64,000 nucleotides of DNA from Escherichia phage fp01, in sequence record NC_048731.1; one strand, 5' to 3'. Below the pieces are notes generated by a model that saw only the letters and a list, made by a program, of their open reading frames with translations, ran no database searches and had not been told where the DNA came from. Below are positions 3,154-17,040 of this stretch, piece by piece; positions within the stretch are counted from its first letter, which is position 1, and every line of letters starts with the position of its first letter. Made by a program: the position numbers and the translations under genes.

Positions 3154-3195
3154 TAGATCTCCCCGATATTAGAATTTGGCTCAGCTATTTATTCT

Positions 3196-3390
3196 TTATA
3201 CTTTTCCATAGTATACGGAAACTGTCTTACCAGTTTGGTTCATGACATATGCTACTTCATCTTCTTTTAAAAAGATGGCTTGATCTACTCCAACTATAGC
3301 CAATCTTTTATTTCTAGGATTAAAGCTTACACTTTTGCCTGTATGAATCTGTTCCCCATTCTTGGCTGACATTATTTTAATTGTTAACAT
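3196..3390 (-). CDS. hypothetical protein
   Basis: ORF track 64 aa. Confidence 0.4.
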   Translation of the reverse strand: MLTIKIMSAKNGEQIHTGKSVSFNPRNKRLAIVGVDQAIFLKEDEVAYVMNQTGKTVSVYYGKV

Positions 3391-7726: not shown

Positions 7727-7804
7727 TGGAAGCGGGTGCAGGGATCGAACCTACCTCTTTCTAGCTTATGAGACTAGCGATCTCTACCAGAGATCTAACC
7801 CGCA
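7727..7804 (-). tRNA. tRNA, anticodon CAT (Met/Ile2 family)
   Basis: D-stem GATC/GATC, anticodon stem CTAGT/GCTAG with loop CTCATAA, T-arm GTAGG-TTCGATC-CCTGC, position 1-72 unpaired, CCA encoded. Confidence 0.65.
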
Positions 7805-7810
7805 ATTGTT

Positions 7811-7886
7811 TGGTCAGTGCGGCAGGACTCGAACCTGCGACCCGAAGCATCCAAGGCTCCCACGCTACCAACTGCGCTACGCACTG
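7811..7886 (-). tRNA. tRNA-Pro (anticodon TGG)
   Basis: acceptor CAGTGCG/CGCACTG, D-arm GCGC-AGTTGGTA-GCGT, anticodon loop CTTGGAT, T-arm GCAGG-TTCGAGT-CCTGC, CCA encoded. Confidence 0.75.
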
Positions 7887-7917
7887 TTAATTTTTGTTAA
7901 CTCACTTTATAAAATAC

Positions 7918-11810: not shown

Positions 11811-11888
11811 TGGTGGCTCCCCGAGGATTCGAACCTACGTACCTTCCGGTTATGAGCCGGGTGCTCATACCATATGAGCTTGAGAACC
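11811..11888 (-). tRNA. tRNA, anticodon CAT (Met family)
   Basis: acceptor GGTTCTC/GGGAGCC, anticodon stem CCGG/CCGG with loop CTCATAA, T-loop TTCGAAT, CCA encoded; third CAT tRNA in the array. Confidence 0.6.
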
Positions 11889-14535: not shown

Positions 14536-15483
14536 TTACTTGTTACGCATATCCATAATCATTTGACCATCATAGCCAGTGCCAACTACAGTCTGAGGTA
14601 CACCACCTTGATATTTCTGAGCACGAATCATCTCAACTTCCAGTTGTTTCCAACGAATCATCTCAGGAGTAATGGTACGTTGCAGTGCGGCGTTAGCTTC
14701 AGCTTCTTTCTTAGCTGCGTACAGTTTAGCATCTGCGTCACGTTCATTAGCGATAGCTTGGTTGTTGCGAGCTTCACGATCAGCTTCTGCTTGTTTAACT
14801 TTCTGCTGAGCTTCTTGTTCAACACGAGCAAGCTCAGCTTTCGCAGCATTAACTTGCTCTTCACGAACTTTGGTATTCTGTACCTGTTCCATGATTACCG
14901 GTGGCAAAGTAATATCCTGAAGGAACACCTGCTTAACTGTGTAACCATATGGGCGCGCATACTCTTCAACTTCCTGTTGAATTGCGGTTTGCAATTGAGC
15001 CTGAATTTTAGCATCAAATAAATCTTGTGCTTTAGGTACAGACTTACCAAACTCACGAATAGTAGACAGTAATTTTTCAGTTACATATTTGTCTAATGCT
15101 TGATCCTGAGTACCTGCATTAATACGGTTAATCGGTGCCTTAGAACCATCAAACTGCAACATAACAGTCAGGTCAACAGTGGATTTAAACTTATCCTGAC
15201 TAGGGACCTGAAGTTTATCTAATTTTAGAGCAATATCTTTAGTACTAAAAGTATCGAAAGAAGCAAAAGGATTTACAATATGAAAGCCGGGTAATACTGG
15301 GCTAGGGTCAACTTTACCCAGGAAAGTCTGGGTTTTAACAGTACCGTCTTGAACAACAGTGTAAGAGTTAAGAGCCAGAACTAAACCTACCAAACCAACT
15401 GCAGCCCCAATACCCCAACGTTTGATATTACGCATTAATTTTTGCTCATAAGTCAGTTCTTTAGTGTTTTTAGTAGCAAACAT
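14536..15483 (-). CDS. SPFH/band-7 (stomatin/prohibitin/HflK-C-like) membrane protein
   Basis: 315 aa; N-terminal TM helix (WGIGAAVGLVGLVLAL), SPFH-like core and C-terminal Ala/Glu/Gln-rich coiled coil (VREEQVNAAKAELARVEQEAQQKVKQAEADREARNNQAIANERDADAKLYAAKKEAEANAALQR). Confidence 0.8.
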   Translation of the reverse strand: MFATKNTKELTYEQKLMRNIKRWGIGAAVGLVGLVLALNSYTVVQDGTVKTQTFLGKVDPSPVLPGFHIVNPFASFDTFSTKDIALKLDKLQVPSQDKFKSTVDLTVMLQFDGSKAPINRINAGTQDQALDKYVTEKLLSTIREFGKSVPKAQDLFDAKIQAQLQTAIQQEVEEYARPYGYTVKQVFLQDITLPPVIMEQVQNTKVREEQVNAAKAELARVEQEAQQKVKQAEADREARNNQAIANERDADAKLYAAKKEAEANAALQRTITPEMIRWKQLEVEMIRAQKYQGGVPQTVVGTGYDGQMIMDMRNK

Positions 15484-15517: not shown

Positions 15518-15592
15518 TGGCCGAGGTGACAGGATTCGAACCTGCATAAAGGAATTTAGAAGACTCCTGCCTCTCCCTTAGACTACACCCCG
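15518..15592 (-). tRNA. tRNA-Arg (anticodon TCT)
   Basis: acceptor CGGGGTG/CACCTCG, anticodon stem GGAGT/ATTCC with loop CTTCTAA, T-arm GCAGG-TTCGAAT-CCTGT, CCA encoded. Confidence 0.65.
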
Positions 15593-16094
15593 TTTAAGTA
15601 TTTTTAAGAACTCTCGTAAAAACTCTTAAAAATACAGACGATACCGGGAGAGTCATAAGTCTCACTCATTAAGTATTTCAAGACAAAATACGGTAACGTC
15701 TATTATTTTCCAGTTTAAGTCAGGGTGACTTAGTGGTTATGTCCTGCGGTATATTGAGGACTCGGTTAGGCTTGGGGTCATGACTTCCCGCCTTTTGCTG
15801 CTACTCAACAGGAATTATCGCGAATTACCTGTGCTATTGTGCACCATTAGTGACATCTCTCATGTCAGCATTTCCCACTTTGTGGATAGCTTGAAAAACT
15901 ACTCCGATATGGAGAAAGAACTTCACTATCCTAGAATACCTTCTAAAGTTCTTCTTTAGTCTGGACATAGTTAAATCGTAATAAAACTATTCAGCAGACT
16001 GGTTGGTTAGTCTGGAACCAACTACCGCGTGGTTTAGGCAGTGCGCAACTAACCTCGGAAGCTTTTACATTAAAAGCACCAGTTATCCAGTTCT

Positions 16095-16175
16095 TACCGA
16101 CCGTAGGATTCGAACCTACATCTTCCACCAGTTACGGCTTGATAATACCAATTATACTAGGACGGCAGTGTTACT
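16095..16175 (-). ncRNA. degenerate tRNA-like element (pseudo-tRNA)
   Basis: T-arm GTAGG-TTCGAAT-CCTAC and acceptor GCCGTCC/GGTCGGT are present, but the D-arm is aberrant and no anticodon stem can be drawn. Confidence 0.35.
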
Positions 16176-16389
16176 ACATAAGTGATTTCCACACCCCACT
16201 ATTTATAAATTAGAGAAGAGTTTAGGGGAGAGGTTTCAGACGCCTCATTTTACACGTTCTAGCCACTAACCGGGATTGCCGCCCCCTGTGTACTAGTTTT
16301 ACAACTAACCCACCGACTCTATTCAATGCGCTCCGGTTGGGATTCTGCACTCAGCGTAATCGGCTCGCTGTTCCCTAATTTATGAATAT

Positions 16390-16418
16390 AGTATACAGAA
16401 TTTAAAGGCATTTAGCAA
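16390..16418 (-). promoter_or_regulatory. T5-type promoter (minus strand, -10 TATACT) firing into the ORF-free region 15593-16389
   Basis: plus agtata 16390-16395, tagcaa 16413-16418, 17-bp spacer. Confidence 0.45.
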
Positions 16419-16426
16419 ATAAATTT

Positions 16427-16870
16427 TTAATTAAATTCGCCAGCAATCTGAGCAGCAGTACCACCATCATAACGCCCAGGAAATTCTTCCTTAATCGCTT
16501 TCATCAGCATACCTTTTGTAATTCCAGGGTTTAGCTTAACTAATTCTGCAAAGTATTTACGAATCTCAGTATCAGATAACTGAGGGGGCAGATACTCCTG
16601 CAACCACTTATTTAGAATGTATTCATACTGAGCAGACTGCAAGCTATAACTATCAAGATCTTGACCATGAAGTTTAGCTTTCATCTGGTTAATGCTTTTT
16701 AGTTGAGCTTTGAGATAAGACACAAACTGTTCAGAAGTGATGAAATCTTTATCAATACGCTGAAGATCCCCGATTATGGTCTGATAGCTTTTAGCGATTT
16801 CTTTATCAGAACCATTAAACTTAGAATCCTGCAAAGCTCTGCGCAAAACATCTAAAATATTTTCTTCCAT
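16427..16870 (-). CDS. GatB/YqeY-domain protein
   Basis: 147 aa; C-terminal ...GMLMKAIKEEFPGRYDGGTAAQIAGEFN resembles YqeY/GatB C-domains. Confidence 0.65.
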   Translation of the reverse strand: MEENILDVLRRALQDSKFNGSDKEIAKSYQTIIGDLQRIDKDFITSEQFVSYLKAQLKSINQMKAKLHGQDLDSYSLQSAQYEYILNKWLQEYLPPQLSDTEIRKYFAELVKLNPGITKGMLMKAIKEEFPGRYDGGTAAQIAGEFN

Positions 16871-17040
16871 TATTTCATTCCTAACGCCTGGTTAAAAGAT
16901 TGTTCTGTCATAACTGCTGAGACTTTGGCGAAATCAAACTTTTTAGGGTTTGTAGTGATTTCAGCAACGTTAGAAGTTTTAACAGTTTTCGTAGTACGAA
17001 TACCGCGGGTGTTAACACCAATAATTACAACTGATTTCAT
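16870..17040 (-). CDS. hypothetical small protein (56 aa)
   Basis: manual translation MKSVVIIGVNTRGIRTTKTVKTSNVAEITTNPKKFDFAKVSAVMTEQSFNQALGMK; stop overlaps the downstream ATG (TAATGG). Confidence 0.35.
   Translation of the reverse strand: MKSVVIIGVNTRGIRTTKTVKTSNVAEITTNPKKFDFAKVSAVMTEQSFNQALGMK

Follow-up and report, generated by a model that had tools for sequence, protein, structure and literature searches.

In silico analysis of a 64,000-nucleotide stretch of Escherichia phage fp01 (sequence record NC_048731.1, hereafter the window) indicates that a block of its minus strand, positions 15593-16376, is the ortholog of rnaX, syntenic with the copies annotated in phages T5, BF23 and DT57C. 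Its product, RNAX, is probably an early, non-coding, multi-domain structured RNA of T5-like phages, for which processing to a mature RNA and an accessory role are proposed. Judged from the substitutions in its homologs, RNAX contains a conserved non-decoding tRNA mimic, in which the acceptor/T stack and the D/T elbow are kept and both the anticodon loop and the CCA end are missing. The features that carry this reading are as follows.

15593-16376, minus strand: RNAX, body of a non-coding transcript (784 nt), recognised by homology to the annotated rnaX of T5, BF23 and DT57C; no conserved open reading frame (ORF)
16173-16186, minus strand: 5' strand of helix P1 (leader AAUCACUUAUGUAGU region), paired with 16078-16091; covariation and RNAalifold
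16095-16166, minus strand: tRNA-like domain; Rfam tRNA score of 35.5 bits, covariation in the acceptor, D, T and short arms
16078-16091, minus strand: 3' strand of helix P1 (trailer ACUGGAUAACUGGU); covariation and RNAalifold
16061-16077, minus strand: hairpin 3 (GCUUUUA-AUG-UAAAAGC); compensatory variants

The 5' end of RNAX (16376) was transferred from the annotated start of rnaX in T5 and BF23, the A which follows AAATT and opens AGGG, and the 3' end is the base preceding the gene for tRNA-Arg. By analogy with the T5 promoter N25, the transcript could alternatively start at 16383.

Structure of the tRNA-like domain

The element was scored at 35.5 bits by the Rfam tRNA model (RF00005, gathering score 29) and its homologs at 26.4-38.3 bits; ARAGORN made no tRNA call at 16095-16166 of the window. 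An earlier note, made from the letters of the window without database searches, had described a degenerate tRNA at 16095-16175 with a good T arm and acceptor stem. The tRNA likeness, the good T arm and the lack of a canonical anticodon stem-loop were borne out; the end has to be moved to 16166. The acceptor stem has a G1.U72 wobble pair and one U5.U68 mismatch. The D stem consists of three pairs and a U.U, and the intact T arm carries the canonical loop UUCGAAU.

The “anticodon” arm is formed in the window by a 3-bp stem with the hexaloop GUAACU. The Klebsiella K7-type and SE24-type phages possess a window-like stem with swapped pairs, a Yersinia phage has a 6-bp stem with the loop GCGAA, a Pectobacterium phage a 6-bp stem with a triloop, and Klebsiella phage IME260 a 20-nt insertion with its own hairpin. 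Neither the element nor its lineage variants have the canonical anticodon arm, with a stem of 5 bp, a loop of 7 nt containing U33, and an anticodon that is conserved. CCA is encoded by all 24 real tRNAs of the window, whereas the element continues with the discriminator A and then AGA, as part of a conserved trailer.

The remaining arms change in a coordinated manner. In the acceptor stem, pair 6-67 alternates between C-G, U.G and U-A, and at 3-70 either C-G or U-A is seen. A U5.U68 mismatch is common to the window and to Klebsiella and Pectobacterium phages; T5 (A-U) and BF23 (U-A) have each “repaired” it independently. The T-stem pairs swap between U-A and C-G and between A-U and G-C around an invariant loop of the UUCGAAU type, and the D stem covaries too. 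The element is read as a tRNA mimic, and not as a decoder or a decaying pseudogene, because these arms are kept without an anticodon loop and an encoded CCA.

A tRNA that still decodes, through an unusual anticodon loop and for example in suppression or frameshifting, would agree with the score above the Rfam gathering threshold, with the ARAGORN call “tRNA-Ser(act)” for the T5, DT57C-like and L027 versions, and with the records in which a tRNA-Sec or tRNA-Ser is annotated. Such a tRNA is nevertheless highly unlikely, since the loop is unconserved (GUAACU and UUCACC with 6 nt, GCGAA with 5 nt, a triloop, a 20-nt insertion) and has no U33, CCA is not encoded as it is in 24 of 24 window tRNAs, position 1-72 is mismatched or wobble-paired, and position 5-68 is a U.U mismatch.

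The earlier note also suggested that the block may be a graveyard of decayed tRNAs or a set of small RNAs. That the block is non-coding, driven by a promoter and a source of RNA is supported, as the homologous stretch is already annotated as rnaX; in place of a graveyard, a single element with covariation was found. Neutral remnants of the island, decaying as tRNA pseudogenes, would be in line with annotations such as “tRNA-Pseudo”, “tRNA-OTHER” or pseudo-tRNA, and with the position at the edge of an island of 24 tRNAs. Like a tRNA pseudogene, the element scores as an Rfam tRNA, is flagged “pseudo” by tRNAscan-type annotation and cannot decode; it differs in that it covaries and is conserved throughout the family instead of decaying. 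Each of the retained arms, and P1 as well, has undergone compensatory substitutions, the block is conserved across genera at the level of coding DNA, and it holds one tRNA-like element only. Furthermore, its “defects” (U5.U68, no CCA, no anticodon loop) are common to phages from Pectobacterium through Salmonella, and for this reason are considered ancestral and not a sign of ongoing decay. Pseudogene decay therefore has very little probability. The comparison with relatives proposed in the earlier note yielded homologous and not unrelated sequence, which holds the same non-decoding mimic instead of intact tRNAs.

Two deviating forms were observed. In a T5-like metagenome contig (ERZ1026892.7, locus L091, 8489-8650) RNAX is a mosaic, about 95% identical to the window outside a long “anticodon” arm of the Klebsiella type, the tip of which reads GGAGA/UCUCC versus GGGG/CCCC in the Klebsiella phages; this points to recombination within the mimic together with compensatory change. 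In the loci L026 (2283-2330) and L040 (2611-2658) an unrelated insert of about 50 nt replaces the tRNA-like body, but not P1, the conserved internal loop or a 5-bp closing stem (CCAGA/UCUGG).

Covariation of the domain and helix P1

The tRNA-like domain is enclosed by helix P1, which has 14 positions; 7 of the 14 pairs are doubly changed (for example AU/CG, CG/GC, GC/AU and UA/CG). P1 and the acceptor stem are separated by a conserved internal loop, AACACU / AAGA (6x4 nt). Hairpin 3 follows directly, and its stem occurs as GCUUUU/AAAAGC, GCUUAU/AUAAGC, GCUUC/GAAGC, GGUUC/GAACC and GCGUA/UACGC. A hairpin GUG-GAAAU-CAC upstream of the mimic was also considered and dropped, as its bases belong to P1.

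The covariation test comprised the 40 proposed pairs of P1, the four cloverleaf arms and hairpin 3 in a MAFFT alignment of 24 sequences. As controls, the 3' partners were slid by 1-3 columns and 500 shuffles were made. Standard pairs fill 85.4% of the cells, compared with 35-39.2% after sliding; both sides are changed in 20 of the 40 pairs, compared with 3-6; and the covariation score is 0.305, compared with at most 0.076. None of the 500 shuffles attained the observed values. RNAalifold, run without guidance, recovered P1, the acceptor stem, the T arm and hairpin 3. Many of the tested pairs are G.U on the minus strand, which argues for an RNA structure and not a DNA structure. On this comparative evidence the tRNA-like domain is under purifying selection with compensatory base-pair changes.

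A covariance model of the domain scored 172.5 bits at 16055-16201. No other site of the window exceeded about 30 bits, the level of ordinary tRNAs, so the domain is present as a single copy. The model also aligns end to end over the tRNA-Pro and its flanks (7773-7907, minus strand) with 29.8 bits, probably just through the tRNA core. Yersinia, Pectobacterium and metagenomic T5-like phages are matched with 110-150 bits; in unrelated phages outside Demerecviridae that share the SPFH gene, the model found no match.

Conservation of RNAX in T5-like phages

The window is the DNA of a T5-like phage (family Demerecviridae); over the 1.2 kb around the block it shares 99.8% identity with Salmonella phage Th1, and the best matches are T5-like phages (444 records by megablast, 524 by blastn). 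The same architecture was found in Klebsiella (Sugarlandvirus), Yersinia, Citrobacter and Pectobacterium (Mccorquodalevirinae) phages. In the distant phages the conserved blocks of RNAX keep 66-76% nucleotide identity, compared with 59-66% for the flanking coding DNA; since unconstrained DNA would not keep such identity, the block is regarded as constrained. By homology, RNAX is kept across the family of T5 phages (Demerecviridae), including other genera and another subfamily within it. A pattern scan of IMG/VR for wider homologs returned only the same T5-like phages.

ORF insertions fall at the domain boundaries: phage gmork has one behind the promoter, and L026, L027, SE24 and ende have one that separates the terminal hairpin from tRNA-Arg. 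The context downstream of RNAX varies, being tRNA-Arg and the SPFH gene in T5-like phages, a 169-aa ORF in L026, L027 and SE24, and unrelated small ORFs in Klebsiella phages. The 169-aa ORF (L027 2875-3384; also L026, L050, which is SE24, and L083, which is ende) is inserted precisely at the junction of the terminal hairpin with tRNA-Arg in many phages of the Epseptimavirus type, and gave no match in Pfam.

Identity with annotated rnaX

In the RefSeq record of T5 (NC_005859), rnaX (T5s08) is a misc_RNA of 719 nt labelled “RNAX, stable RNA with unknown functions”, which begins within promoter P16-17 and stops one base before tRNA-Arg. The rnaX of BF23 (AJ604530) measures 784 nt, the same as the window copy, and that of DT57C 636 nt. 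Over the core (blastn of 630 nt) the identity is 92.7% to T5, 97.3% to BF23 and 95% to DT57C. All three annotated copies share with the window the promoter P16-17, the junction with tRNA-Arg(UCU), the downstream SPFH gene and the terminator. The differences relate to a 5' module of about 150 nt, present in the window and BF23 and absent from T5 and DT57C, and to an 87-nt insertion, carried by T5 and not by the window copy. This insertion (at about 15718 of the window; about 3190-3276 of the T5 locus, L022) partly duplicates hairpin H_a (GUCACCUUGAC), described below, together with the adjoining AAACUGGAA.

The entries for T5, BF23 and DT57C give no structure, no function and no mention of a tRNA-like domain. 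At the site of the element another T5 record has a pseudo-tRNA, and other genomes have the labels tRNA-Pseudo-TAA, tRNA-OTHER, tRNA-Ser or tRNA-Sec, or overlying hypothetical ORFs; annotation pipelines thus mislabel the mimic as pseudo-tRNA, tRNA-Ser, tRNA-Sec or small ORFs. T5 lists eight stable RNAs in its tRNA region, RNAX among them, and three of these are labelled “tRNA-like”. RNA1, RNA2 and RNA3 of T5 resemble RNAX as stable RNAs of a phage tRNA cluster without assigned function, some of them partly tRNA-shaped. Phage T4 likewise encodes the species 1 and 2 RNAs (rnaC, rnaD); in both phages these small stable RNAs come from the tRNA cluster and are matured with the tRNAs. In contrast to RNAX, with 640-800 nt and several domains, RNA1-3 of T5 and the two T4 species are single units of 70-170 nt.

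The RNAX region belongs to the deletion-prone, non-essential “del-1” tRNA region of T5 (PMC12483538). Full-text searches of the available literature library found no paper describing RNAX, and only the context of the del-1 hotspot and of tRNA-targeting defence. RNAX is thus already known as an annotation, and its architecture and family-wide covariation appear to be undescribed.

Further domains of RNAX

Beyond the clamped mimic, the following domains have been delimited, from the 5' to the 3' end.

16223-16371, minus strand: module A, an optional 5' domain within the 5'-terminal hairpin; indel pattern of the 24-sequence alignment
16025-16055, minus strand: hairpin 4 (AGGUUAGU-UGCGC-ACUGCCU), stem 16055-16036; variants read by eye
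15879-16024, minus strand: variable central region; unrelated modules in other lineages
15733-15878, minus strand: multi-hairpin domain closed by GUGG (15878-15875) and CCAC (15736-15733); RNAalifold, 14 sequences
15718-15730, minus strand: hairpin H_a (AGUCA-CCC-UGACU), almost invariant across genera
15636-15701, minus strand: three-way junction H_b, outer stem AGACG.UACCG / CGGUA.CGUCU; independent minimum free energy (MFE) folds
15598-15635, minus strand: terminal 17-bp hairpin with a UACG loop, 5 nt before tRNA-Arg; MFE fold

Module A combines a hairpin capped by GUAA with a sub-hairpin that is exchanged between two variants, and has partial homologs in Yersinia and Citrobacter phages and in L040. 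The stem of hairpin 4 varies as GACAG/CUGUC in Citrobacter and Yersinia phages; a pseudoknot between its loop UUGCG and CGCGG at 16029-16025 is possible, both sides being changed in L027 (UUUCG/CGAGG; all read by eye). The central region contains a GUUGGUU/AACCAAC stem at 16022-16002. A second pairing or pseudoknot in this region, CAGACU/AGUCUG, was dropped, as the partner is lost in SE24-type phages.

For the domain at 15885-15722, 35 pairs were predicted by RNAalifold from 14 sequences, and compensatory changes occur in 15 of these pairs. The segment 15730-15800, formerly supposed to be tRNA-derived, gave no match to the tRNA model on either strand at E<=10 and nothing with ARAGORN. It comprises instead two covarying hairpins and the 3' strand of the closing stem of the multi-helix domain.

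The last 140 nt, with H_a, H_b and the terminal hairpin, are conserved into Klebsiella, Yersinia and Pectobacterium phages. The outer stem of H_b encloses two hairpins and a conserved single-stranded CUUAAU, and independent MFE folds of 19 homologs with differing stems (window, SE24-type, Klebsiella, Pectobacterium) recover it. From E. coli to Pectobacterium phages the terminal hairpin hardly varies, and its only changes are one-sided and compatible with wobble pairing (A-U to G.U and U.G to C-G; RNAalifold). A clean covariation at one of its positions was considered and dropped, since U-A, C-G, C.A or C.C occurs depending on the lineage. The terminal-hairpin motif is present in one copy in the window. 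Seven metagenome contigs, each of them T5-like, contain it as well, and none of 185,579 bacterial and archaeal genomes does. The covariation in these domains, together with that of P1 and the mimic, supports the view that RNAX is a multi-domain structured RNA.

Coding potential

The block contains six ORFs of 30-60 aa (42, 45, 44 and 30 aa on the minus strand, 59 and 60 aa on the plus strand). None is conserved on either strand, as stops or frameshifts break all six in relatives which keep the nucleotide sequence; for example, the 44-aa ORF is disrupted in T5 and the 45-aa ORF in L027, L047 and L082. The earlier remark that the block lacks ORFs on its minus strand is confirmed as regards conserved ORFs. 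The small ORFs, including those annotated by others, were rejected because their reading frames are not kept in relatives. A Shine-Dalgarno-like GGGGUG with an AUG-UAG mini-ORF was likewise discarded: Citrobacter and Pectobacterium phages have ACG in place of the AUG, which is itself part of P1. On this comparison RNAX has no conserved reading frame and is taken to be non-coding.

A role of the block in the form of DNA (a site of replication, recombination or protein binding) or of small proteins has also been weighed. The location within a deletion hotspot, del-1, rich in repeated promoters (PMC12483538) would suit a DNA element, and so would the terminal hairpin, which is a long inverted repeat with one arm nearly invariant; short ORFs are called here by some annotators. 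This explanation is very improbable, given that pairs are kept through G.U intermediates valid only in minus-strand RNA, that the long-range helices P1, H_b and GUGG/CCAC covary, and that the ORFs are not conserved.

Transcription unit

RNAX is located at the edge of a tRNA island typical of T5-like phages, with 23 tRNAs found by ARAGORN and 25 hits of the Rfam tRNA model, all on the minus strand; the real tRNAs of the window number 24. The surrounding features are listed below.

16390-16418, minus strand: early promoter of T5 type, homolog of P16-17; consensus scan, alignment of 23 relatives, annotation and sequence of T5 and BF23
15518-15592, minus strand: tRNA-Arg(UCU) with encoded CCA, the 5' end of which sets the 3' end of RNAX; ARAGORN, Rfam 49.3 bits, T5 annotation
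14536-15483: ORF of an SPFH/Band-7 membrane protein, minus strand; ORF list, Pfam Band_7 63.9 bits
14512-14482, minus strand: intrinsic terminator; terminator scan, “efficient bidirectional terminator” of T5

The promoter had been predicted to be directed into the block, with the block ending at tRNA-Arg(TCT). Both predictions agree with the present data: the sigma-70 consensus scan gives a -35 element TTGCTA, a 17-nt spacer and a -10 element TATACT, homologous to P16-17 of T5 and BF23, and tRNA-Arg adjoins the block directly. The A/T-rich upstream part of the window promoter extends to 16430. The -10 element at 16390-16395 (minus strand) is TATACT in the window versus the consensus TATAAT in nearly all of the 23 aligned relatives. 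The terminator scan found none between the promoter and tRNA-Arg, and the first one stands after the SPFH gene. As read from these signals, RNAX, tRNA-Arg(UCU) and the SPFH gene are one transcription unit, governed by a strong early promoter of T5 type.

The early-promoter sequence (16376-16430 and paralogous sites) recurs 3-8 times per locus of about 8-14 kb with 72-88% identity, and is named “repeat c” in one T5 annotation. These promoter repeats likely serve as substrates in the del-1 deletions known from published work. Another observation within the island concerns a tRNA at 11814-11888 (minus strand) with 40.3 bits in Rfam, a good acceptor stem and an encoded CCA, which was missed by ARAGORN; its T5 counterpart is tRNA-Ile2(CAU), adjoining tRNA-Ser(GCU).

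The strongest rival explanation follows from this arrangement. RNAX could be a cis-acting 5' leader of the tRNA-Arg/SPFH operon, serving in processing, stability or attenuation and without a function as free RNA. The absence of a terminator from the promoter as far as tRNA-Arg, with the first one after the SPFH gene, is in its favour, and the terminal hairpin always stands directly before the next gene, be it tRNA-Arg or an inserted ORF with a ribosome-binding site. However, the conserved domains persist whatever gene follows, at least five covarying domains over about 640-800 nt far exceed the needs of known leaders, and the T5 annotators count RNAX among eight stable RNAs. A purely cis-acting leader function is accordingly rated as unlikely, and the reading of RNAX as a structured RNA in its own right is preferred.

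Neighbouring genes

16427-16870, minus strand: YqeY/GatB-tail-like ORF, directly upstream of the RNAX promoter; Pfam YqeY 25.4 bits (cut-off 27)

This ORF shows a weak collinear match to the structure of B. subtilis YqeY (1ng6), and public records name it “tRNA amidotransferase”, “recombination related exonuclease” or “YqeY domain protein”. The YqeY/GatB-tail domain type binds the tRNA elbow in GatB, and it is possible that the YqeY-like protein is a tRNA-elbow binder encoded beside a tRNA mimic. A strict co-occurrence of YqeY and RNAX was considered and abandoned, as the Klebsiella Sugarlandvirus phages keep RNAX, mostly without a detectable YqeY homolog. Next to this gene, a 56-aa ORF at 16870-17040 (minus strand) gave a strong full-length match to Pfam DUF7616 (113 bits).

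Relation to known RNA families

Among 4227 models of Rfam 15, cmscan returned only tRNA on the RNAX strand, both for the window region (E<=10) and for six diverse homologs (E<=1). As only tRNA is returned, RNAX is not a recognised member of GOLLD, ROOL, tmRNA, a Y-RNA-like family or any other curated family. For tmRNA, the ARAGORN tmRNA search and Rfam were both negative, and the tRNA-like unit of RNAX is contiguous and not built from the 5' and 3' ends.

GOLLD and ROOL are large “ornate” RNAs which phages and prophages encode, in many cases close to tRNA islands; they are non-essential, and their function is unknown. GOLLD combines a 3' region that is conserved with a 5' region that varies, and in some cases has tRNAs in its linker; both families are included in Rfam (PMC12286853). 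They are similar to RNAX in that they comprise hundreds of nucleotides, are phage-encoded beside a tRNA island, contain many covarying helices and are non-essential, a likeness in kind and not homology. The differences are the lack of an Rfam model match, the occurrence of RNAX in lytic Demerecviridae of enterobacteria, and its tRNA unit, which is a helix-clamped non-decoding mimic. That RNAX might be a diverged member of GOLLD, ROOL or another Rfam family (tmRNA, Y-RNA-like) would be in keeping with the tRNA-island site, the size, the conserved 3' and variable 5' parts and the embedded tRNA-like unit, as in GOLLD and ROOL (PMC12286853). With tRNA as the only cmscan hit in Rfam 15 and the negative ARAGORN tmRNA search, such membership is extremely unlikely.

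Closer parallels to the mimic itself are of another kind. Longer non-coding RNAs may contain tRNA-like units, such as mascRNA at the 3' end of MALAT1 and the tRNA-mimicking domain of the Y RNA YrlA, and these units are recognised by tRNA enzymes rather than used in decoding. The RNAX mimic resembles them in being cloverleaf-like, its acceptor, T and D arms being intact and its anticodon arm degenerate; there is no homology. The closing helix of YrlA continues from the side of the anticodon stem, whereas that of RNAX is on the acceptor side, via the conserved 6x4-nt internal loop.

Proposed role of RNAX

In the proposed mechanism RNase P would cut the primary transcript at the 5' end of tRNA-Arg and thereby produce the 3' end of RNAX, 5 nt past the 17-bp terminal hairpin. 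This hairpin would shield the RNA from 3' exonucleases, which would account for the label “stable RNA”. The mimic would show a tRNA elbow and acceptor to the tRNA-binding machinery of the host. RNase P is the most likely partner and an obvious candidate, because there is a U at position -1, 6 nt of the leader and 4 nt of the trailer are unpaired, and the acceptor/T stack of 12 bp is intact. After any cut by RNase P at the mimic, P1 would hold the two halves together. RNAX could then act as an accessory, host-dependent factor in a tRNA-centred takeover or counter-defence, as a scaffold or decoy for tRNA-binding proteins; its biological role is probably accessory and host-dependent.

Several observations weigh against this account. 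The T5 deletion mutant st0 is viable with the whole RNAX region missing, so RNAX is not essential, and the status of a “stable RNA” comes from database notes. The middle third of RNAX is replaced between lineages, and the tRNA shape is not indispensable, because L026 and L040 replace the tRNA-like body. The fold stability is unremarkable compared with shuffles (full length z=-0.74, module A z=+0.67), the 3' third being modestly more stable (z=-2.6). Where an ORF stands before tRNA-Arg, RNase P cannot form the 3' end beside the terminal hairpin, and the pairing of leader and trailer near the acceptor stem could hinder, instead of allowing, cleavage by RNase P at the mimic.

T5-like phages are central models for tRNA-targeted immunity and viral tRNA counter-measures, including PARIS, Schlafen and other tRNA-cleaving defences, and the tRNA island of T5 has a role in overcoming such defences (PMC11464382, PMC13056530). 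A bolder and distinctly doubtful proposal is that RNAX is the founder of an undescribed class of large structured phage RNAs, analogous to GOLLD and ROOL and unrelated to them in sequence. Its mimic would act in trans as a decoy or scaffold for the host tRNA-binding machinery or for the tRNA-targeting nucleases of defence systems, perhaps in a ribonucleoprotein with the YqeY/GatB-tail-like protein, and would protect the tRNA-based counter-defence of the phage.

For about 20 years RNAX has had no structure, Rfam family or phenotype to go with its GenBank label “stable RNA with unknown functions”. The present analysis links it conceptually to the GOLLD and ROOL RNAs which accompany phage tRNA islands, and P1, the mimic and the terminal hairpin offer concrete targets for experiments.

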